Source: an uncultured Alphaproteobacteria bacterium
GTDB lineage: Bacteria; Pseudomonadota; Alphaproteobacteria; Rhizobiales; Xanthobacteraceae
Assembly (NCBI GenBank): GCA_963800155.1
Contig: CAWDAB010000004.1
Coordinates: forward strand, 26,755 to 90,754
Length of the DNA stretch: 64,000 nucleotides
Reading direction: 5' to 3'
The notes below the pieces were generated by a model. It made no database searches. It was not told the origin of the DNA and saw only the letters and a list, made by a program, of their open reading frames with translations. Shown here in pieces: positions 25,474 to 64,000 of the stretch. The first letter of the stretch is position 1, and every line of letters starts with the position of its first letter. The translations under genes and the position numbers were made by a program.

Positions 25474-26012
25474 CCTCGATCAGCTTGCGGCCGAAGCCCG
25501 GCCAGGGCCCGAAAGATGCCGCCAAGGCGCAGAGCGCTCGCCTGCGTAAGGCAATCACCAGCACGGCCTACAAGATCGCCTCGGAAGTCCAGCAGCGCGG
25601 GCGTGTCGACATCGCGCAAGCCGGCCGCTTCGGGCCCAACTGGATTTTCGGACTGCGGGCCTTCAAGCAGCGCAAGGAGCCAGGCACCAGTCGCACGGTC
25701 GTCACGGTCAAGCACAACATCCCATTCGCGGAGATCTTCGAGGAAGGCGGCGTCGTCACAGGCAAGCCGCTGTTGTGGATTCCGATCAGCACGGAAAAAG
25801 ATGCGGTCGGCATCCGTGCGCGCAAATTCAATCTCCCGCTGTTCCGGATCACGAGCAAGCGCGGCACGCCGCTGCTGATCACGCCGAAAGGCAAGCCGAA
25901 GTATTTCGGCGTCCGCTCCGTCACCGAGCCGAAGCTGTTCCACATCCGCCAGATCGCCAACGACGTGGCCAAGCGCGCGGGCGATTATTTCCACTCCTAC
26001 TTGGACGGATAA
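25470..26012 (+). CDS. Basic phage tail-completion/neck-type protein (gene X)
   Basis: Coupled to the chaperone; natively precedes the tape measure gene. Confidence 0.6.
   Translation: MTSISLRPKPGQGPKDAAKAQSARLRKAITSTAYKIASEVQQRGRVDIAQAGRFGPNWIFGLRAFKQRKEPGTSRTVVTVKHNIPFAEIFEEGGVVTGKPLLWIPISTEKDAVGIRARKFNLPLFRITSKRGTPLLITPKGKPKYFGVRSVTEPKLFHIRQIANDVAKRAGDYFHSYLDG
25845..26012 (+). repeat. Arm A (3' 168 nt of gene X)
   Basis: Homologous to 28514-28681; 47/55 aa identical by manual alignment. Confidence 0.9.
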
Positions 26013-26172
26013 TCCAGACCATCGCACTCACTAAAGCGGCAGCCATAGCCGTACGTCGATCTAAGGCACAGCCAGCACGTCGCGACCCGCCCTCGAAAGT
26101 CTGCTTGGGGCAAAGCGCAGATGGGCTAAAAACCGGCTAGACTCGGTAGCGCAGCCTTCTTTATTCTTGAAG

Positions 26173-28104: not shown

Positions 28105-28253
28105 GTAAGTCCTCGGCCGATTGCCGGCGCCGCGAGATGACCCACCGAATGACCCCGGCATCCCAATGGGGAGAGATTCAGGCGCAGATAAGGCGGACAT
28201 TGGCTGCGCCGCGCTACAAAAGCCAATTTATGAGTGCACCGCGCGAATAAGCT

Positions 28254-28514
28254 ATGTCCGACAAGATCATCACCGAGATCGTCATCGAGGGCGAGAAGGA
28301 AGCCATTGCCGGCATCCAGCGCGTCGGCAAAGCGGCCGATGCCGCTTTTGCCGATCTTAAGGATGTCCAGCTCAGTTTCGACTTCATCGAACTCGAGAAG
28401 GGGCCGAAATCGCTGACCGACGCTGGACAAAGGTTCGCCGCGTCGATGAAGAACACCGGCACCGTCGTGACCAGCGTGTTTGCCGGCATTAGTAGCGCCT
28501 TCCGCAACGCCGGC
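28254..28514 (+). repeat. Arm B': diverged copy of the first 87 codons of the tape measure gene
   Basis: Homologous to 33040-33300; 73/87 aa identical by manual alignment. Confidence 0.92.
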
Positions 28515-28681
28515 GCATCACCAGCAACAAGGGTACGCCGCTGCTGATTACGTCTAAGGGCAAGCCGAAATATTTCGGCGTCCGCTCAGTCAGAGAGCCG
28601 AAGCTGTTTCACATCCGTCAGATCGCCGACGACGAGGCTAGGCGCGCCGGCGATTATTTCCATTCTTATCTGGATGAATGA
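28514..28681 (+). repeat. Arm A': diverged copy of the gene X 3' end, abutting B'
   Basis: Reads RITSNKGTPLLITSKGKPKYFGVRSVREPKLFHIRQIADDEARRAGDYFHSYLDE*. Confidence 0.92.
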
Positions 28682-28750
28682 TCGAGTGGAGGCCGAACCT
28701 AGGCAGGACGTATTCAAGCGAACTTATCTGGATGGAGTCCTATGATTGGC

Positions 28751-32960: not shown

Positions 32961-33039
32961 GAGTTCTGATCGACATCATCTCAATTCGACTTTGCCATGC
33001 TCACGCAACCGAACTTATGAGCGTTCGGCCTAACCAGCC

Positions 33040-35891
33040 ATGTCCGACAAGATCATCACCGAGATCGTCCTCGAGGGCGAGAAGGAAGCGATTGCCAGCA
33101 TCCAGCGCGTCGGCAAGGCGGCCGACGCGACCTTCGCCGATCTCCAGAACGTCCAGCTCAATTTCGACTTCGTCGAACCCGAGAAGGGGCTCAAATCGCT
33201 GACCGACGCGGGCCAGCGGTTCGCCTCGTCGATGAAGAACACCGGCAATATCGTGACCAACGTGTTCGCCGGCATCACTAGCGCTTTCCGCAACGCCGGC
33301 ACCGTGGGTGGCGGCGTCTTCTCGGAATTGACGCGCTCGCTGCAAGCCACGAGCCTGGTGGCGAAGGCGGCCGGCGTGCAGATCCCCTCGCTCGGGCGTA
33401 CCGTTTCGGCGCTCGGCCGCACCGTCGATTCCTTCAGCGGCGGCGCGCGGACGGCGGCGCTGAATACGACCGACTTCGGGCAGGCGGTCGCGGCCGACCG
33501 GCCCGCAACTTAGCGGCTCGGTCGCAAGCCGCCTTCAATCTGGGGCGCAATATCGGCGACGTGGGCGTGAGCCGCGGTTCGGGTCGCGACCCAGATCGTC
33601 AAGCTGGTGACAGTCGTTTCGCTGCTCGGCACCGCCGTCATCGCGGCATTCGGCGCGCTGGCGAAATCGGCGTCGACCGCCATCAATGCGGTCGGCGAGG
33701 CCGCGCGCAATGCCAGCATATCGGTCGACGCCTACGACAAGCTCATCATCGCGCTGCAAGGCTTAGGGATCAGCAGCGAGGACGCGCAAGCGGCGATCAC
33801 GGCGATGTCGGCGCAATTGGCGCGCTTCGGCATCCGCTACGGCCCCGATTCGGCCGGCGTCGCCGATATGCTGGCGAACAATTTCGCGCGGCTGGCCGAC
33901 CAGGTCGCGTTCAATATCGACCCGGTCAAGCAGTTGCAGATCGCGCAAGCGGCCCTCGGCGCCGAGCTTGGCAAGAAGCTGTTGCCGCAGCTGCGCATGG
34001 GCGGCGATTATTTCCGGCAGATGGCCGACGATACGCGGATCGCCGGCATCGCGTTCAATAAGCTCGACGATTCGAATGCAACCAAGTTCATTGTCGCGTG
34101 GTCGCGTCTTTCCACGATCATCGGCCAATTGAAGAACAAGATCGGCGCGCAATTTGCCGAGCCGTTCGCGCGCGCCATCAATATCGTCACCGAGCTATTG
34201 CTGCAAAACGCGCAGGTTATCCTGCAATGGGCAGTCCGATCTCGCGTCGGCGACCGGCCCGATGCTGGTCGATCTCGCGCGCGCCTTTGCCGGCCTCGAT
34301 AAGGACGTCCAGAACAAGAATATCCTGGCGTTCCGCGACGCGATCTTCGGCATCGGCAAGGCTATCGGCTTTGCGGTCGCAAGCGGTGGTCGGCGGCTTC
34401 AAGCTGATGGTGGCCGCCATCAAGCCGGTGACCGATGCAGTCAACAATCTGTTCGGCACCCAGATCACGGCCGGCGAGGTCGTCGCCTATGCGGCGATCC
34501 TGCAATTGATCGGCGCCTTCCGCCTGCTGTTCTCGGTCGCGACCGGCATCGGCGCGTTGGCGTCGCCCTGGACGCTGGTGGTCGTCGCCATCGGCGCGGT
34601 CCTCGTGGCGCTGGGATACCTCGCCTACAAGTATTGGCCCGAAATCAAGCAGGCGGTCGCCGACGCCACGCAGTGGATGAAGGACAAGTTCGGCGAGGCC
34701 TGGACGGTGGTGGCGGGTGCCGCCGCGACTGCCGCCGTCGCCGGCATCATCTATCTGATCGGGCTTATCCCCGGCGCGCTGGCGGGCGCCGTTGCCGGCA
34801 TTGCGGCGTTCGGCAGCGCGGTTGCCGCCGCAATCGTCGCGGCGCCGTGGGTCGCGCTCGGCATCGCTATTGCCGGCGTCGTCGCCGCGCTCGGCGTGCT
34901 GGCCTACGAATATTGGCCGCAGATCAAGGCCGCGGCGCAAGCGACCTGGGCCGCGATCAAGAGCGGCGCCGCTACTCTCTGGACCGATATCCAGGCGGCC
35001 TGGAATGCCGGCGTCAGCGCGCTCAACAGCCTGTGGCAATTGCTCGTCTCCGGCGCGCAATCGGCCTGGTCGCTGATCACGCAAGGCGCCTCGACCCTGT
35101 GGGCCGGCCTGCAGAGCGTCTGGTCGTCCGGCGTCGCCGCCGTCTCGGCGCTGTGGTCCGGGCTTACGACCGGCTGCGCAAACCGCCTGGGATACGCTGG
35201 TGGCCGGCGCCAAGGGCGCGGCGTCCGCGATCAATACGCTGTTCGCCAACATCATCGGCTACCTGTTCGGCAACCAGCTGGCGGGCGATCTGCAAGCCGC
35301 CTTGCCGCTGTGGGACCAGATGGCGGGCGCGGCCGAATCCGCGATGTCGCGGATCAATGCCGCCGTCGCGAGCGCCACCGCCGCCGTGAACCAATTGAGC
35401 GCCGCGCTCCAGCAAGCGGCGGCGACCGCGCGGGCGGCGCAATCGGCGATGCAGGAGGTTGCCGCCGGCGGCGGCGCGGCAGGCTATGCGCGCGGCGGGC
35501 CCATTCGCGGGCCGCGGCACATCGACATCGGATTCGGTTCTGCTGTGGGGTTCGCGCGGCGAATTCATGCAGCCGGCGCGCGCGGTCGCCCATTACGGCC
35601 TCGCCTTCATGGAGGCGGTGCGCACCTTGCGCCTGCCCATCCCGCGCTTTGCGACCGGCGGCCTCATCGACGGGCTGTCGAATGCCTTGATGAGCCCGCT
35701 CGCGCCGTCGCTGGCGATGCCGCAACCGGCGCCGGTCGCCGCTGTCGCCGTCGCGCATTCTCAACCTGACCATCGGCAACGAGACGTTCGGCGGCTTGGC
35801 GGCCGATGAGGACACCATGGAGCGGCTGACGCGCTTTGCCGTGCGCCAGCAATTGCGCTCGTCGGGGCGCAAGCCGGGCTGGAATCGCTGA
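33040..35891 (+). CDS. Tape measure protein; multiple frameshifts
   Basis: Ala-rich helical segments with Trp-periodic repeats across ORFs 33040, 33607, 34098, 35200 and 35459; C-terminal GG.I.G.GTSTSDS..GEF motif. Confidence 0.8.
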
Positions 35892-35903
35892 AAGGAAGCG
35901 CAA

Positions 35904-36334
35904 ATGGCGGACGAAACCGTGCTCTCGCTTCTGGGGCTCGGCGTGCCGCCCTATTCCGCGCGCGGCCTGACGCAAACCCTGGAGCCGCTCGACCAGGCGA
36001 CCAGCCTGGCCGCGCACGATCAATGGCGAGCTGATCGATCTGTCGCGCGCAGAATTCCGCAAATACAAGTCGACCATCAGCGGCACCGATCAGCGCCCGC
36101 CGTCCTGTGACGGGCTTTGGCCCGGGCGCCAGATCGTCGTCGATTGCATCGAGGAACTTGCCTATCCGGACGGCGGGACGCCGCAGCGGCCGGTGGTCGA
36201 AGGCTCGTCGTTTTCCGGAAGCCGGCTTCACCTATTACCGGCCGCGGCTGACCATGGTGGTGACGGATTTCCAGCTGTCGCGCGACGAATATGGCGCGCA
36301 GGTCGGCTGGTCGATGAGCCTTGAAGAAAAATGA
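35904..36334 (+). CDS. Putative distal tail protein; frameshifted
   Basis: Follows the TMP with an RBS; PPYSARGLTQTL start and TMVVTDF..LEE end lie in different frames. Confidence 0.5.
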
Positions 36335-38325
36335 ACGCCGATTTCACCGATCAAGCGAGCTTGCGCGCGCGGCTTCGCATCGGCAGCATCGGGCCGTTCT
36401 ATTTCGCCTGGGCGGACAAGAACGAGGCGTTCGATCCGGCGGTGCACGCGCGCATCGACGAGGACATTTTCAAGTTCGATGTCGATCACAGCGAGGGCGA
36501 TTTCGCGACGCTGACCGCGATCGTCCGCAACCCGCGCATCGGCCTCTTGGCGCCGTCGCGCCGGGTCTGGGCCTGGCTCTCCTGGCAGAACGGCGCCGAT
36601 CTCGTGCCCCTGTTCTACGGCCGGCTGGTCGGCGTGCCGACCGACATCAATCAGGAACTGGTGACGCTGGTCTTCACCGCGCGCCCGGCCGATTTCGTCG
36701 CGCTGAAAGCGGCCAAGGCCGAAACGTTGAAGGTGCGGCCCTATTACGATCCGATCTGGATCAATCCCGACGCGCTCGATGATCCCGACACCGTGCTCGA
36801 GGCGCGTTCGGCGCTCTGGTCGATCGATCGCGTCACCCACGAGGTCGATATCTCCGATGTGCTGGTCGGCGAGGATGGCATCGAGGATTTTGGGCCCGAC
36901 GAGGTGCCCTACGACTCGGTCAAGATCAATCTCGGCGAGACGCCGCTGCGCAGCGTCTCGGTCGACGCCACCATCAATTGGACGCAAAGCGCATCGGGCA
37001 CGCTTGCACTTCGGCCTCAACGTTGCGACCTACACCGGGCAATCGCTGATTTCGGATTGGCCGAAGCCCGGCGCGACGCTCGGCGGCGGCTGGACGGTTG
37101 TCGCCGCCTCGGCGCGCGATCTCAACGATGTCGAGAACGTCGATACGGTCAATTGCACCGTCAATTGGCAGAACCAGGAGAAAAAGCACGCAACCGGCGA
37201 CACCATGTCGGTCAGCATTTCAAGCTCGGTGCCGATCATGCGCGGCCCGTACCTTTACACCGACCTGATGCGCAAGTTTCAGACCGGCGTCATCGACGAA
37301 GGCGGGCCGGACAGCGATCCGATCAATATCCCGGCAACGCAGGAAAGCACCGGGCTTTACGTGCCGCTCTGGCAGGTCCAGGCGAGCATGACGCTGAAAT
37401 ACGACGCCAACCGGCCGCGCAAGGAGCATGCGCGCTTTACGCTGACGACCGATGTGCAGGACATCGTCACGCTGGCCGAGGACGCCGATGTTCTGGCGAT
37501 CACGCTGGACTCGCAGGATGTCGGCGCCGCCGTCGCCGGCGGCCCGCCGCCCATCGGCTATCTCGGCCGGCGCTCCTATCTGCCCACCGATCGCGGGCTG
37601 TGGAGCCTCGAATATCTGATTGCGCTTGCGCGCGCGCATCTGCTGATCCGCTCGCGCTGCGTCGAGATCACCTTCGCCTGCACCTTCGAGCGCGCCGTCG
37701 CGCTGTCCTGCCGCAAGAACGCGCCGGCTATTCGACGACCGCCTGCCGGGCGGGCAGGCGCTCGGCAAGATCATCGACTACAAATTCGGCGTCGATGGCT
37801 GCAATGGCCTCGCCATCGGGTCGGTGACCATCGGCTGCGCCATCGGCTATGGCGGCGCGGTGCAGGAGCAGCCCGGCGAGCCGACCTATGCGGCGCCCGG
37901 CTACATGGCGCGCCGGCTATCAGGCCTATGCAATCGTCGAGGTCGCGCTGCCGGCGAGCGATGTGAGCTATGCGCCGCCCATCGACGCGCCAAATGATGA
38001 CGGGCTCGCGTTTCCGCTGTCGAAAAGGCAGGCGGTGGTGCGCGAGCAGGTGCACGGCTCGGCCGACGCGCAGGGCGGCGCCATCGAGGCGTCGTTCCCC
38101 ATCGATATCGAGGTCAACAACGCGCAGCCGCAGAACGTGAACGAGCAGAACCGCATCGCGGCGCTGCAATCGCAGACCACGACCGAAATCCTCAAAGGCA
38201 ATGCCGTCTGGTACGACCTCGAATTGAAGCCCGTCGCCGGCATGTCCTTCGAGACGGCCTATGACATCGCCGTCTCGGAATTGAAGGTGCCGAAGATGAT
38301 CGATCTTGAGGCCGCATCGTCATGA
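36331..38325 (+). CDS. Putative tail hub/baseplate protein; frameshifted
   Basis: Joined from ORFs 36331, 36779 and 37849; beta-rich; expected position. Confidence 0.5.
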
Positions 38326-38663
38326 CCAGCCTTGAGCGCATCGTGCGGCCGTTCCAGTCACGGGACGTGACGCCGCCGCAGCGGATTTTGAATCCGAGCG
38401 AGCCGCCGGTCGACAATGTGCTGATCCAGTGCGGGCAGACCGGATCGACCAAGACGTTCAATTCGAGCTACTCGAGCACGATCACGTCCTACGTCGAAAG
38501 CAAGCACCGCGAATTCAGCCGCGAAACCAGCATCAAGCGCATCACCAATCCGGACGACGAAACGCAATACGTCGATGTCGAGTTGATCGACAAGCTCAAG
38601 ACCTCCGGCGTCAACGGCCAGGAGACGACCTTCACCTACAAGAACAAGAGCAATGGCGCTTGA
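38322..38663 (+). CDS. Hypothetical tail protein
   Basis: Coupled to both neighbours by overlaps. Confidence 0.55.
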   Translation: MTSLERIVRPFQSRDVTPPQRILNPSEPPVDNVLIQCGQTGSTKTFNSSYSSTITSYVESKHREFSRETSIKRITNPDDETQYVDVELIDKLKTSGVNGQETTFTYKNKSNGA

Positions 38664-39503
38664 TCCCCCATGGCGGCTCGACCCTCACCAAAGCATTGTC
38701 GAGGTCGGCTGGGGCGCCGCGAAGATCGCCGCACTGGTCTTGAGCATCGATTATGTCGGCGGTGATGCTTTCAGCGATACGCCGGCTTTGAGCGGCCTGC
38801 CGTTCGGCACCACGTTCAATCTGCTGGCGCAGATCGGCGCGCCGGGTGACACGCCGATCGTCAATCCGTTTTCGTCCGCCATGCTGGCGCACGAATACAT
38901 GTGGAGCCGGCCGCCCTGGTCCGACCAGCATTCGGAAAGCCACACCTATGAGGCGACCGTCGTCGACGAGGCGATCTGGAACGGCTGGGCCTATGGCGGC
39001 GGCTCGCCGCTCGGCGGCGTGCGCGTCCCCTACCACGACGGCGTGCCCGATCAGGATGTGCTGCAACAGGCAATCGACGGCTGGGTCGAGGGCTACGGCA
39101 TCCCCGCCGACCAGATCTATTGGATCATCTGGGAGGTCACCGCCTCGCACACCGAACTCCAGACGATCAATCAGTTCTTTTATTCAGCGCGCATGCGATC
39201 GTCTTTTTCAATCTCGGCCGGATCAAAGGGCTGATCAGCCCGTCCCGCTCGCTGACCTTCGAGATCGCGACGGCCGGCGCATCGAGCAGCACCTATTACC
39301 GATGGGCGCTTGGCGTCGGCACCTATAAGGGCACGCGCGATTTCCCCTCGGACGCTCAATGCAATCCGACCTGGACCGGCGTGCCGGTTGCTGCTGCCGG
39401 CACCGCAAGCCCGAACGTGCCTGAGACCGCGATGCCGGCCTGCACCAGCTCTTTCGCGATTGATCTCGACACGCTCGAGGTCACCGCCGAACGCCTGCCG
39501 TAG
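38653..39503 (+). CDS. Hypothetical tail protein; frameshifted
   Basis: Joined from ORFs 38653..39234 and 39120..39503. Confidence 0.45.
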
Positions 39504-39512
39504 AGAACGTGA

Positions 39513-40286
39513 ATGGTCGCCCTGAAATACCGCACCGACGACAATGCCCAATGGGGCGCCGGCCTTGGCCGCGATCTCCAGCCCGCAGGAGATCGACCAG
39601 AATTTCTATGACGTTGAACAGCGGCTGGAGGCGGTCGAGCAGAACCCGGTGCTGCCCAACGAGATCGAATCGATCTCGCGTTGACGGCAACCGGATGACG
39701 ATCACCATGGCCGATCATACGGTGTTCGGCCCCTACATCCTGCCGCAAGCCGCCTTCCGCTTTACCGGCGCCTTTCAGCCCAACCACGATTACCGGCTTT
39801 ACGATTTCCTGGTCGCCAATGACGGCCTCTATCTGGTGCTGCACGATTTTACCTCGGGCGACGCCTTCGTGTTCGGCGCCGACGCGCAAGGCCCGTTCTA
39901 TCAGTTCATCCTGCCGTTCCCGAGCAACTACGACATCGCCTTCTTTTTCCCGGGTCCGCCCGGGCTTGGCATTGTCGACGGCGCGGCGATGTTCGCTTTC
40001 CGCGCTTCGGCCCGCACGCCGTTCTATCTGCCGGCCGGCTTGCCCGACTCCTCCGCCGGGCTTGCCGATCGCGCCGACCGCCGCCCTGTCCTGCGCGATC
40101 TATCAGGACGCAACGCAGATCGGCACGCTTGATTTCGCGGCCGGCAGCACGGCCGGCACCTTCACTTTCGACCAGGCCATCCAGTTCAACGCCGGCAATA
40201 CGCTGCGCGTCATGCGCCCCGCGGCGCTCGATGATACCGCGCTCGATCTGAGCATCCTGTTCGCCGCGGTGAAGGGAACGCTGTGA
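39513..40286 (+). CDS. Tail adaptor-type protein; frameshifted
   Basis: Manual reading MVALKYRTDD...AAVKGTL; the C-terminal 71 aa match the second copy at 63326-63542 (1 aa difference). Confidence 0.6.
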
Positions 40287-40287
40287 C

Positions 40288-43200
40288 ATGGCGACCCCGC
40301 TCGTAGCGGTCGCCTGGGGCGGCGCTGACAATCCGCGCGGCGCCTGGTCGGCCGACGACGCGGCAAGCTGGACGACCGTAAACCTCCCGACCTTCGCCAA
40401 CGGCAGCGGCTCGAAGCTGGTCGGGCCTGGCCTATTCGCCCAAGCTCGGCATGTTCGTCGCCATCGCCAGCGGCGGCGACAATAACAACAACAACGTCGC
40501 GCGGTCGACCGACAACGGCCATAGCTGGACCGGCACCGCCGTCCCGAATACGAATTCGTGGACGATGAACGGCATCTGCTGGGCCGGCGTCCTCGGGCTG
40601 TTCGTCATCGTCACCTCGGCCGGGCCGACCACCAGCACGCGCGTCCTCACCTCGCCCGACGGCATCAATTGGACGGCGCGCTCGCTGCCCGACGACCGGC
40701 GTCGCGCTCAACTCGGTCTGCTGGTCGTCCGATCGCGGCCTTTTGGTCGCGGTCGGCGACAACAACGCGGTCTTTACGTCGCCCGACGCGATCAATTGGA
40801 CCAAGGCGAACGCGCCGGCCACGAGCAAGAACTGGCGCTTCATCGTCTGGGCCGGCGGCGCCATCCAGAAGTTCTGCATGATCGCTGGCAACGCCAGCGG
40901 CAATAACGACTACGCCTATTGCAGCGATCCGACCTCGGCGGCGTGGTCGCAAAAATCGCTGACCGGCTCGGCCTACGATTGGCAATCGATCGCCTATTCG
41001 CCCGGCCTCGACATGCTGATGGTGGTCGGCGGCAATACCGGCGTCATTGCCCGCTCCACCGATGGCGTCAATTACACGCAACTTGCCAGCGGCCTTGGCG
41101 GCACGCGCTTCGATCATGCCTGCTGGTCCGATGCCGGCAAGTGGCTCGTCATCGGCGCCAATACCCTCTACACCTCGGCGAACGGCGTCGCCTGGACGGC
41201 CGGCACGCCGCCATCGACGCTCAGCTGGCATCGCCTGGTGGCGGCGAATGCGCTGCCGCTTGCCGGCAATCTGCGGGCCGATTTTTCCGATGGCGCGGCG
41301 CTCGCGGTCAATTCGCGCGTGCCCATCCCGCCCGGCGCGCATTTCTGTTGGCGCGTCTATGTCGAGGCCAACAACGCCGATTCCTATACGTCGATCGGCG
41401 AGGTCTACATGCGCGCCTCGCCCGGCGGCGCCGATCTGTGCGTGGGCGGCACCGCGCTCGAAAGCGGCCATAGCGGCTCCGATGTCGCGGCGAACGCCTT
41501 CAATCGCAGCGAGGGAAATCGCTGGGCGACGGTCGGCTCGTCCGGCGTCTGGGTCGGCTATCGCTTCCCGCTCCGCCAGGCGCATCGTCGAATTCGCGCT
41601 CAAGGCCGATACCTCGTACCTGACGCAGGTCCCCAAGCGCTTCTGGCTCGAATGGTCGGACGATGGCGTCAACTGGCGCACCGCCATCGGCGCCATCAAC
41701 GAGACCGGCTGGACGCAACCTCCAGACGCGCACCTTCACCAAGCCGGCGCTGGTCGACGGCGCGGCCGAAACCTGGGCGGTGCGCTGCCTCGACAAGATG
41801 TCGAGCGGCGCCTTCGGCAGCGCCGACTACGTCGAAATCCAGGAGCTCGAATTCCGCGATAGTAACGGCGTCGATCTGACCGATGCCGGCGGCGGCACGG
41901 CGATCGAGTCCTCGCACAATTCGAGCTACGTGGCGGCCAACGCCTTCGACAATAATGCCGGCACGCGCTGGCAGGCCGGGGCGAACGGCAAGCAATATGT
42001 CGGCTATACGTTCCCGTCAGCGGTTGCGCCCGCCGTCCTTACCATGCGGGCGCAGAACACGTCCGAATACAATCTGGCGCCGCTGAATTTCGACGTTCTG
42101 ATTTCGCACGATGGCGAGGTGTTCGGCGCGGTCCTGGCCGTGCCGACGCTGCCGGCCTGGACGCAAAATCTCCAGCGCGCTTTCGATCTCGCCGGCGACG
42201 GCACGCCGCTCGGCCCCTCGATCGACGGCCAGGCCAACGCGAATTTCTCCGGTAGCGCGACCGGCAACGTCTCGCTGACGACCACGCAGCCGGACGATAT
42301 CATCGTCGCGATCGTCCATACCGAGACGACCGGCAGCAACGGCTATCGCCCGGTCGGCAGCGTCACCGATACCGCCGGCTTGTCGTGGCAGCGCCGGGCG
42401 CAATACCAGTGGGCCGGCGGTCGCAATAGCAACTCGAACACGCTGGAAATCTGGTGGGCGCATGCGCCCGCTGCGCTCACCGCCGATACGATCACCGCGC
42501 ATATCTCCGGCGGCAATGTCGACGACGCGACCATTCTGGCGTTCGGCGTTGCCGGCGCCGATATCGACGAGCCGTTCGACACGAACGCGGGCCTGCCGGC
42601 GACCGCGACCGGCGGCGCATCGACCGCCAGCACGCCGAGCCTTGCCGGCGTTTCGACCGATGCCGCCCGCGCGCTGATCCTCGCCGTCGCCGGCTCCCCG
42701 CGCACCGGCGGGACGAGCTCGTCGCCCGCCGATTTCACGACGCTTGCGAATTTCACCAATAGCGGCGGCAGCGATTGGTCATCGCAGCAGAGCGAATACA
42801 AGCTCGCGACCGGCCCGCTCATCGATGCGACCGTCGCTTTCGGCACGTCCTTCACGATCCTGAATTGGGGCTTGATCGTCGATGCGATCAAGGCCCCGGC
42901 CGCGGGCATCCCGCCGCTCGAATTGACGGCGGCGCTCGCCGAGGACGCGGCTTTCGGCGCGGCGATCACCATCATCCCGCCGCCGCTGGAATTGGCCGCC
43001 GCGTTCGCCGACGAGGCGACGCTGGCGCCGACGATCGGCATCTGGCCGCCGCTTCATCTCGCCGCCGCTTTCGGCGAGGACGCGGCATTCGCGGCGGCGA
43101 TCACGGTTCTGCCGGCGCCGCTCCATCTGGCCGCCGATCTCGCCGACGGCGCGGCGCTTGCCGCCTATCTGACCGTCGGCGCCGCGGCCTTGCGGCTCGC

Positions 43201-43366
43201 GGCCGATTTCGCCGACGACGCGGTGCTGACCGCGCGCGCGACGCTGTTCGCCGCGATCGCGCTCGCGGCCGCATTCACCGACGACGCCGAGCTTGCGGCG
43301 CCGGTGACCATCGGATTTCAGCCCCACGCGCCTCCGATCCAGGTCGTCGTGGTGCTGAGTTGGTAA
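40288..43366 (+). CDS. Putative receptor-binding/tail fibre protein (BNR/Asp-box propeller, two discoidin-like domains, C-terminal repeats); frameshifted
   Basis: Repeated S.DG..W motifs; two ANAF......RW...GY.FP domains; six 22-23-aa Ala-rich repeats. Confidence 0.65.
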
Positions 43367-43381
43367 CCAAAGGAGAAAACC

Positions 43382-43795
43382 ATGGCATCTGACATGAGCG
43401 TCTATCTCGGCAACAAGGTCTGCCGCTGGCTTGCCGGCAATGCGATGCCGGCGGCGCCCGCCGCCTGCTATGTCGGCCTGTTCAACGGCAACCCGAAAAC
43501 CTCGGGCGCCGAGGTCACCGACACCATCAATGCCGCCGGCCGCGTCGCGATCACCTTCGACGCCATCGCCGACGATGGCGTCGACAACGAGATCACGAAT
43601 TCGGCCGATGTCGATTTCGGCGAGGCGGCCGGCGATGTCGCCAACCTCGACTATGTCGGCATCTTCGACGCGGCCTCGGGCGGCAACCTGCTGTTCAGCA
43701 AGGCCCTGCCGGGCGGGCCCTTTGCGGTCGCTACCGGCACGCCCATCAAGTTCCTGACCGGCGACCTGACCTTCACCATCGGCGCCGCGAGCTAA
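43382..43795 (+). CDS. Small tail fibre-associated protein
   Basis: RBS AAGGAG; YVGLF.GNP and YVGIFDAASGGNLLF motifs. Confidence 0.6.
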   Translation: MASDMSVYLGNKVCRWLAGNAMPAAPAACYVGLFNGNPKTSGAEVTDTINAAGRVAITFDAIADDGVDNEITNSADVDFGEAAGDVANLDYVGIFDAASGGNLLFSKALPGGPFAVATGTPIKFLTGDLTFTIGAAS

Positions 43796-43987
43796 AGCGA
43801 GCGCGGATCAACCCGCGCCCTTCCCTTAAATCCCAAAACTGACGGCTTGGCTGTCGGCGCGCGCGGCGCGCCGCACATGCACATGCGCGTCTTCAAGGCG
43901 AGCCGACCTCGGAATGACGGCGCGCAGGTCGGCGCGCCGCCGCCCAATTCGGCATCGGCCGACATCCCCCACCACAGCGAGGACTTG

Positions 43988-62159: not shown

Positions 62160-63035
62160 ATGCCGAAATTCCTGATCGAGCCGCACTTCCGCCTGCAAGA
62201 ATGGGTCGCCGAAGAGAAGGACTATTTCCGCCAGGAAGGTCTAGACTACGAGTTCCGCGAGCTGGTGCGATCAACTAGCGGCAAGATCCACGACAAGGGC
62301 GATAAGATAGGCGCCTTCCAATCGTTCGAGCAGGGGCGCCAAGCGAGCGTGAGCTGCGCCTGCCATTGGACCGTCAACGTCGCGGCCTCCAACGGCCACG
62401 GCAAGATGTACACGGACGTCTATTCCGTGGCGCCGGCGGGCATCTTCGTGCCGGTCAACTCACCCGTGAAGACGCCGGCTGATCTCGCCGGAGTGCCGAT
62501 TTCGGTCGGCTTCCAGTCCGGCAGTCACTACGCCACCGTGCAGGCGCTCGAACAATATCTCAAACCGGAGGACATCAACCTTGTCTACTCCGACGGCATG
62601 CTTTTCGCGCGCATGGAGCGGCTAATCGAGGGCAGAGCGCCGGCGGTAAACCTGTTCAGCGGGCCTTATTACTTTGCAGAGCAGCTCGGCTTCCGCAAAG
62701 TGATCGACACCACATTCATGATCGGCACCATGATCCACGACGATCCTGATCGAGATGACCTGCGCAAGTTCTTCCGCGCGCTGCGCCGCGCCCAACGCGA
62801 CATTGATCTCAGGCCGGAGCTCTACACGCATTATTACAAGAATGAATTTCCCGACCGTTTCCATCAGATGATGGACACGCGGCGCTGGGGTCCTGGAGAG
62901 CGGCTGGTGTTCGAGCCCTACACCCAGGAAGTCTACCAGGAGTCCTTCGACTGGATCGCCGCCCACCGCATATTCCCAGAAGGTGCGATGGGTGCCCGAC
63001 GCTACGAGCAGGCCACCCTGTCGTTGACCAACTGA
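62160..63035 (+). CDS. SsuA/NMT1-like substrate-binding-fold protein without an obvious signal peptide
   Basis: VKTPADLAG..I.V...SGSH motif; size 291 aa. Confidence 0.65.
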   Translation: MPKFLIEPHFRLQEWVAEEKDYFRQEGLDYEFRELVRSTSGKIHDKGDKIGAFQSFEQGRQASVSCACHWTVNVAASNGHGKMYTDVYSVAPAGIFVPVNSPVKTPADLAGVPISVGFQSGSHYATVQALEQYLKPEDINLVYSDGMLFARMERLIEGRAPAVNLFSGPYYFAEQLGFRKVIDTTFMIGTMIHDDPDRDDLRKFFRALRRAQRDIDLRPELYTHYYKNEFPDRFHQMMDTRRWGPGERLVFEPYTQEVYQESFDWIAAHRIFPEGAMGARRYEQATLSLTN

Positions 63036-63230: not shown

Positions 63231-63324
63231 ATGACGCTGCGGACGCGATTGACGGACATGCTTGCCATCGAGCATCCGATCATTTCAGCCCCGATGGCCT
63301 TTGCCGGGGGCGGCAAGCTTGCCG
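63231..63324 (+). pseudogene. Nitronate monooxygenase N-terminal fragment, truncated by phage DNA
   Basis: MTLRTRLTDMLAIEHPIISAPMAFAGGGKLA with RBS GGAG, then an in-frame switch to tail protein sequence. Confidence 0.75.
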
Positions 63325-64000
63325 TCGCGCCGACCGCGGCCCTTTCCTGCGCGATTTACCAGGATGCAACTCAAATCGGCACGCTGGATTTTGCTGCTGG
63401 CAGCACGGCCGGCACGTTTACGTTCGACCAGGCCATCCAGTTCAACGCCGGCAATACGCTGCGCGTCATGCGCCCGGCGGCGCTCGATGAAACCGCGCTC
63501 GATCTGAGTATTCTGTTCGCCGCGGTGAAGGGCACGCTGTAACATGGCGACTTCGCTTGTTGCGGTCGCCAATAGCGGGACCGCCAACCCGCGCGGAGCC
63601 TGGTCGGGAGACGACGGTATAAGCTGGTCGACCGTCAATCTACCGACCTTTGCGAATGGTTCGGGGTCAAGCTGGTCGGGGCTCGCCTATTCCCCCGCCC
63701 TCGATATGTTCGTCGCCATCGCCAGCGGCGGCGACAACAATAATAACAACGTTGCCCGCTCAACCGACGCTGGGCAAAGCTGGACCGGCACCGCCGTCCC
63801 AAATCAAAATACCTGGACGATGAACGGCATCTGCTGGGCAGGCCACCTCGGCTTGTTCGTCATCGTCACTTCGGCCGGGCCGACCAGCGCAACTCGCGTT
63901 CTGACCTCAGCGGATGGGATCAATTGGACCGCGCGCACGCTGCCGGTGACGGCGGTTTCCCTGCTTTCAGTTTGCTGGTCGAGTGACCTCGGGCTGCTGG
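63317..64000 (+). repeat. Second, diverged copy of the tail-adaptor 3' end and RBP 5' end (copy 1 at about 40060-40746)
   Basis: Colinear homology over the whole stretch, with mostly third-position differences. Confidence 0.93.
63544..64000 (+). CDS. Receptor-binding protein paralog, 3'-partial and in frame
   Basis: MATSLVAVANSGTANPRGAWSGDDGISW...SSDLGLL, with no stop to the window end. Confidence 0.8.
   Translation, partial: MATSLVAVANSGTANPRGAWSGDDGISWSTVNLPTFANGSGSSWSGLAYSPALDMFVAIASGGDNNNNNVARSTDAGQSWTGTAVPNQNTWTMNGICWAGHLGLFVIVTSAGPTSATRVLTSADGINWTARTLPVTAVSLLSVCWSSDLGLL

Follow-up and report, generated by a model that had tools for sequence, protein, structure and literature searches.

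Joints at short homology between phage and bacterial DNA are known from the gal and bio transducing phages of lambda and from homology-facilitated illegitimate recombination, and orphan remnants of tail-fibre genes are found in bacterial chromosomes, as in the cryptic prophages of E. coli K-12. Template-switch chimeras formed during amplification show microhomology too. In assembled genomes, chimeric joins between different genomes are missed by marker-based contamination estimates (bioRxiv 10.64898/2026.10.15.759294).

The window analyzed here is a stretch of 64,000 nt from an uncultured alphaproteobacterium of the Xanthobacteraceae (positions 26755-90754 of contig C4, 103,876 nt), and contains a nitronate monooxygenase (NMO) gene that runs into phage DNA close to the window end. 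The contig extends 13.1 kb further, and positions above 64000 are window coordinates extrapolated along C4. The genome is rated 96.6% complete and 1.97% contaminated on the basis of markers. Its assembly looks long-read, as IS copies are resolved and two duplicate contigs, C13 and C14 (16,676 and 16,677 nt), are identical except for one indel, apparently a duplicate assembly of a small replicon or repeat. Our preferred reading, to which we give somewhat better than an even chance, is that a tail-tip piece of a sibling siphophage adjoins the NMO gene in a microhomology scar on its left and ends in an assembly artefact on its right.

The truncated host gene and the left joint

The features at the host-phage joint are as follows.

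62160-63035, + strand: gene of an NMT1/THI5-like substrate-binding protein, 291 aa, a native host gene (Pfam NMT1)
63231-63323, + strand: 5' remnant of the NMO gene, 31 codons (tblastn to the paralogue on contig C9 and to the NMO of contig L116; DNA alignment with nine orthologues)
63311-63324, no strand: 14-bp perfect palindrome CGGCAAGCTTGCCG, the last 8 bp of which (63317-63324) are the microhomology (read from the sequence)
63317-63542, + strand: last 74 codons of a sibling phage's gene for a 256-aa fibre-like protein, fused in frame to the NMO remnant (alignments)
63544-64000, + strand: 5' part of the sibling's short-form RBP gene, phage sequence running on to 64920 (459 codons; nucleotide and amino acid alignments)

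The NMT1-like protein has orthologues with 80-94% amino acid identity in relatives of the genus and in metagenomes. The open reading frame at 63231-63542 (103 aa) opens with MTLRTRLTDMLAIEHPIISAPMAFAGGGKLA; its N-terminus is 55% identical over 29 aa to the host's own NMO paralogue on C9 (tblastn), and its 5' part also matches intact NMO orthologues of 324-346 aa from genus relatives and metagenome contigs. These alignments bear out the initial annotation, which had described an NMO gene cut after about 31 codons and continued in frame by the 3' part of a phage gene. The NMO identity of the 5' part is visible through orthologue alignment only: the 31 codons left give no Pfam match, and the full FMN-binding TIM-barrel (PF03060) is not present in the fusion. 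The order of GntR, NMT1-like and intact NMO genes in a relative (G100, contig L021) and in the ENA contig L116 is that of the window, so the remnant lies at its native locus. The block had been taken for cargo ('cargo3'), which it is not simply, as at least its GntR, NMT1-like and NMO genes are native and stand in the order of the relatives. In L116, the intact order reads GntR, NMT1, NMO, OMP, DUF488 and nos cluster. The 3' part of the NMO gene was not found anywhere in the assembly, and an intact NMO of the remnant's type is absent from the bin.

The octamer GCTTGCCG at 63317-63324 is present also at 40060-40067, within the resident prophage, as had been claimed. The two sides of the joint come from unrelated parents, each represented by proxies and not by the true parent: nine NMO orthologues on the left and, on the right, the phage gene as it stands in the resident prophage (copy 1) and in the Logan contig L110, an intact close relative of this prophage. 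At the joint, GGCAAGCTTGCCGC is read in three of the nine NMO orthologues, most of the others matching six or seven of the eight octamer bases, and GGGCTTGCCG is read in both phage proxies; the octamer would thus have been present in both parents. Among 3 million simulated blunt host-phage joins, eight or more bases were shared with a frequency of 3.4e-4, and seven or more with a frequency of 1.0e-3. The octamer in the parent proxies and this low chance value together uphold the earlier proposal of a microhomology-type join to NMO. Within a 25-bp patch round the octamer, NMO and phage are alike at 20 positions (80%), and at 12 of the 17 bases that come after it.

The octamer constitutes the right arm of the palindrome CGGCAAGCTTGCCG, in place of which native NMO orthologues have the 12-bp palindrome GGCAAGCTTGCC. 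The 14-bp form occurs twice in the genome. The possibility that GCTTGCCG is a dedicated motif for recombination or uptake was considered and rejected, since the genome contains 2100 copies of it at 2151 expected under a Markov model; nor is it enriched in the window, where 23 copies correspond to the genome-wide rate of 0.34 per kb. An exact search for the left and right joints among JGI metagenome contigs gave no match, and an exact look-up of the fusion protein and of the 583-aa open reading frame that follows it found neither on record elsewhere.

In an independent contig from a close relative, L118, with an NMT1-like protein 92% identical to that of the window, NMO is broken within ~15 nt of the same short palindrome. 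The gene is kept there as ~34 degenerate codons (JGI 3300057024, 1734-1840), and unrelated genes follow, namely a 485-aa gene, a methyltransferase and a P450, with 87% nucleotide identity to C6:172692-176247 of the genome studied here. In L119 and L120, NMO is lost after ~22 nt. Taken together, the breaks in L118 and in L119/L120 mark the 5' region of NMO as a recurrent breakpoint in the lineage, and the breakage at nearly the same place in an independent relative is of modest interest. That the palindrome GGCAAGCTTGCC at NMO codons 29-33 is itself a recurrent fragile site, to which unrelated DNA becomes joined by microhomology, seems to us unlikely; if true, foreign DNA would naturally be captured at this site, as the piece of phage fibre genes in the window and as the methyltransferase/P450 block in L118.

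The phage fragment and its counterparts

The counterparts of the fragment in the resident prophage are the following two genes.

39513-40286, + strand: resident copy 1 of the gene for the 256-aa fibre-like protein, with three 1-nt insertions (tblastn of the L110 protein, four frame segments)
40288-43366, + strand: resident long-form RBP gene, ~1025 codons, the first 1.45 kb interrupted by four 1-nt insertions (comparison with L110)

The genes of L110 are ordered TMP, 142, 663, 113, 282, 256, RBP of 1001 aa, Gp80-like of 137 aa and GH108, and both in copy 1 and in L110 the RBP belongs to a tail-tip module between the tape-measure/hub and lysis genes. The resident RBP is 87-93% identical in amino acids to the 1001-aa protein of L110 in five frame segments, with the Pfam family F5_F8_type_C. 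In copy 1 of the fibre-like gene, the frame is broken by an extra A at 40068, right after the octamer at 40060-40067.

Compared with L110 (91% nucleotide identity), the stretch 35171-41715 contains 15 single-base insertions and no net deletions, and the TMP, 142-aa, 663-aa, 282-aa, 256-aa and long RBP genes are frameshifted by them; no single-base insertions are found in the flanks 34277-35171 and 41715-43800. The high protein identity and the one-sided type of the indels point tentatively to errors of the consensus in a region of thin coverage and strain variation, the alternative being a very unusual mutation pattern.

The 256-aa protein that precedes the RBP is conserved and has no Pfam family. 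Its structural model (pLDDT 85) has a C-terminal jelly-roll of C1q/TNF-like type, with strands at residues 129-253, which matches the tail fibres of Agrobacterium phage 7-7-1 (PDB 9rkv; E 3e-5, 118-120 columns, rmsd 2.4-3.7) and also C1q/Pgp3 heads; this likeness is that of a predicted model with 12-13% identity to these structures, and only the last 74 residues are kept in the fusion. The designation 'tail adaptor', given to this gene initially, found no support, and considering the predicted jelly-roll the protein would be better named small fibre-like. The joint at residue 183 cuts the predicted jelly-roll domain, and the 74 fused residues therefore should not be able to fold alone.

The RBP exists naturally in a long form of ~1000 aa (copy 1, L110) and a short form of 433-475 aa (the fragment's gene, hereafter copy 2). 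Its first 320 residues are predicted to form a 7-bladed propeller of the BNR type, like those of GH74, Ycf48 and sialidases. In the long form (40288-43366 in the window, 6001-9006 in L110), two F5/8-type-C-like domains are inserted between the propeller and a conserved repeat tail ending in IQVVVVLSW.

The left joint is in direct orientation, with the right flank of the host on one side and the interior of the phage on the other, 63317-64920 repeating 40060-41250 plus 42901-43318 of the resident prophage, with 79% nucleotide identity between 63317-64501 and the former interval and 83% between 64503-64920 and the latter. The absence of the RBP centre (41250-42901) could have been taken for a deletion scar; this was rejected, as natural short forms of 433-455 aa share the exact architecture. 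Copy 2 has 71-75% amino acid identity to these forms, which end in ...PVTIGFQPxAPPIQVVVVLSW, and is colinear with them at full length. The 74 fused residues are 92% identical to residues 183-256 of the L110 protein, and one of the 74 differs from those encoded at 40060-40286, where pS is 0.31, dS 0.40, dN 0.006 and omega 0.016. Within the RBP, omega between the copies is 0.24 in the N-terminal part and 0.40 in the C-terminal part (by codon). The purifying selection manifested in these values (dS 0.40, omega 0.016) agrees with the initial view of the copy as descended from a functional sibling phage and not from a recent local duplication, and from the sequence comparison it appears sound to assign the fragment to a diverged sibling under such selection. 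Across its 1604 nt no frameshift is present and, together with the omega of 0.016 over 74 codons, this indicates that the fragment is not of single-read quality.

No parent closer than copy 1 was found among public proteins and IMG/VR, the best matches having 71-72% amino acid identity, and neither the rest of the sibling phage nor a second lysis module was found in the assembly. Elsewhere in the window, the stretch 28225-28686 consists of two diverged sibling patches that meet at 28514 (86% and 83% nucleotide identity to 25845-26017 and 33012-33300, respectively), as had been noted initially for the cargo cassettes, their divergence being similar to that of the fragment 63317-64920. A second prophage of the genome (C8:319588-325400) resembles that of the window up to and including the large terminase (72-88% in nucleotides, 91% in amino acids for the terminase) and is different downstream of it.

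The actinobacterial contig end

Beyond the window, the initial annotation had predicted a second tail/RBP module, with the RBP gene, the small fibre gene and possibly GH108 lysis genes. The fibre gene does continue, for 920 nt more, but neither a small fibre (Gp80-like) gene nor a GH108 gene follows, and no second module is present: the phage homology stops at 64920, where chromosomal DNA of Solirubrobacterales begins. It ends at ...PVTIGF, 15 codons (48 nt with the stop) short of the native RBP stop; copy 2 is thus without its native C-terminus, the last 15 conserved residues QPxAPPIQVVVVLSW being missing, and it also has no tail-tip gene context. Past 64920, the 583-aa open reading frame consists of 124 meaningless read-through codons in actinobacterial DNA, to 65295.

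The 12.2 kb from 64920 to the contig end (77122) form one colinear block with 97.25% identity to contigs of Solirubrobacterales (Actinomycetota), represented by two contigs of 305 kb and 549 kb (L121 and L122) and an NCBI MAG (L123). The gene order of the block (epimerase, NTP-transferase, ccmE, ccmF, secG, SBP, ABM, lexA and onward) is that of the Solirubrobacterales genomes, in which thioredoxin and ccmH genes come next on the left. The break at 64920/64921 lies inside a 122-aa actinobacterial gene and overlaps with the phage side by 1 nt (T). Across this joint GC changes from ~0.63 to 0.69, with GC3 of at least 0.9, and the tetranucleotide signature of the block is found only in its own windows in the whole assembly. 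The host's own ccmF on contig C1 is 35% identical to that of the block. Thus, three origins succeed one another here, namely host, phage and actinobacterial, and C4 never re-enters host DNA after 64920.

Relative to L121, the mismatch density is 78, 56 and 44 per kb over the 3 kb right of the joint, drops to 5-13 per kb through eight further 1-kb bins and stands at 23 in the final bin. Of the 41 indels, 23 fall within the first 2 kb, and the epimerase and NTP-transferase genes are broken in the first 3 kb. The break itself is located mid-gene, with no end of a mobile element, and the foreign DNA extends as far as C4 does. The assembly has one more contig end of alien origin: the first 47,270 nt of contig C7 (375 kb) have 32-37% GC and encode Bacteroidota-looking proteins, the remainder having ~60% GC and above, and the joint lies mid-ORF (...NEACSA/SPSAG...). 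That two contig ends are alien, each joined within a gene, speaks for chimeric reads or misjoins and not for biology.

Considering these facts, the joint at 64920/64921 is very probably an artefact, as judged from the sequence, and the contig tail is best read as an assembly chimera, even though the mismatch density to the right of 64920 could be real strain variation in sugar genes. Chimeric contigs of the same kind, with an abrupt mid-gene switch of phylum and a foreign block running to the contig end, have been described in metagenome-assembled genomes, and like C4 (1.97% here) they were invisible to marker-based estimates (bioRxiv 10.64898/2026.10.15.759294). That work covers short-read assemblers, whereas the present assembly looks long-read, and a chimeric read is therefore a likelier cause than a shared k-mer.

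A genuine cross-phylum transfer at 64920 was considered and found very unlikely, given a colinear foreign chromosome at 97% identity, a 1-nt overlap and a second such block on C7. In its fullest version, an alphaproteobacterium would have captured at least 12 kb of Solirubrobacterales chromosome together with phage filler at a broken NMO. The contiguity within the contig is all that speaks for this very improbable account; the block includes such chromosomal genes as lexA, secG and ccmEF, its composition is unameliorated, and it extends to the end of the contig.

Should the right joint be an artefact, the real sequence has to extend past 64920, and this bears on another reading, related to the model of the initial annotation, in which a circle was closed by microhomology and integrated by homology. 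A unit of a sibling lysogen, reaching from the fibre-like C-terminus through the RBP and lysis genes and 17 kb of host DNA to NMO codon 31, would have been circularised or duplicated at the microhomology, and homologous recombination would have inserted it afterwards. After 64920, the true genome would proceed through the rest of the second RBP gene, the Gp80-like gene and the lysis genes to the interval once more, and the collapse of this second copy by the assembler would explain the break of the contig at this point. The topology of the left joint, from right-flank host DNA to phage interior in the same orientation, is exactly that of a duplication or an aberrant excision, host DNA ends where the fibre genes turn highly conserved (a plausible repeat boundary), and other diverged sibling patches exist at 28225-28686. 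However, right to the end of their homology the copies are just 83% alike, the NMO 5' region breaks in relatives that have no phage there, and the assembly lacks second Gp80-like, GH108 and downstream genes as well as a full NMO. No contig of the assembly carries a second copy of the 17-kb interval or of the Gp80-like or GH108 genes, and nothing anywhere in it shows the circle or duplication. As the contig leaves the genome at 64920, the model is not refuted in principle, and we regard it as improbable.

The left joint and its likeness to known systems

As to the left joint, the probability that it is real and exists in cells may be put, on the sequence evidence, at a little over one half. In its favor are the 8-bp microhomology, against an overlap of 1 nt at the right joint, the consensus-grade quality of the fragment, the lack in the bin of an intact NMO of the same type, and the independent breakage of NMO in L118. 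On the other hand, the chimeric ends proven in this assembly make a joint at 1.6 kb from one of them less trustworthy, polymerase template switching in amplification would give microhomology as well, and neither any other part of the sibling phage nor the 3' part of NMO is found in the bin, the joint itself being absent from the JGI metagenome contigs.

An unlikely alternative, though weightier than those above, is that both joints are artefacts, everything from 63317 to the end coming from a chimeric molecule or read of several pieces (host, 1.6 kb of phage, actinobacterium) and the real genome keeping an intact NMO. It accords with the two cross-phylum chimeras at contig termini, with the shortness of the phage piece, cut mid-gene at both ends, and with the absence of the sibling-phage remainder from the bin. 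Yet blunt ligation would very rarely leave 8 bp of overlap (3.4e-4), the 1 nt of the right joint being what it is expected to give; the fragment, unlike the first kb of the actinobacterial tail, is consensus-grade; and the intact NMO is missing from the bin, the gene in L118 being broken within ~15 nt of the same place.

According to the preferred reading, that of a microhomology scar on the left and an artefact on the right, a 1604-nt piece, with the last 74 codons of the fibre-like gene and with a beta-propeller RBP of the short form that is kept up to codon 459 of ~475, would have been joined by its left end to NMO codon 31 through short-homology illegitimate recombination (template switching or microhomology-mediated end joining). 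The event would have destroyed NMO, giving a presumably functionless in-frame fusion, in which the 74 phage residues amount to less than a domain, and the assembler, most likely via one chimeric long read, would then have run into a co-occurring Solirubrobacterales chromosome and followed it to the contig end. What is left as biology would be an ordinary scar of microhomology joining, provided that it is real, in front of a contig end that was misassembled. The locus is of value mainly as a caution: in a genome rated at 96.6% completeness and 2% contamination, the last 12 kb of one contig belong to the chromosome of another phylum and the first 47 kb of a second contig are alien, and readings such as 'cargo', 'fusion' or 'horizontal transfer' near these ends, including that of the 583-aa frame as an 'RBP', would be wrong.

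With the joints of the lambda gal/bio type, the putative left joint has in common that a short identity, of 8 bp in this case, connects the interior of a phage with host DNA beside it, as well as an orientation that would be expected of an aberrant-excision or duplication joint. It differs from them in that its phage DNA comes from a sibling with 79-84% identity to the resident prophage and not from the resident itself; nor is a packaged or circular product, a homologous anchor or a second copy of the interval in evidence. As in the cryptic-prophage remnants of E. coli K-12, a lone partial fibre gene without a virion module lies beside a disrupted host gene. In contrast to those remnants, the 3' truncation would here be an artefact of assembly and not a result of decay, and the fragment bears a strong signature of purifying selection, so that the event, if it took place in the cell, would be recent.
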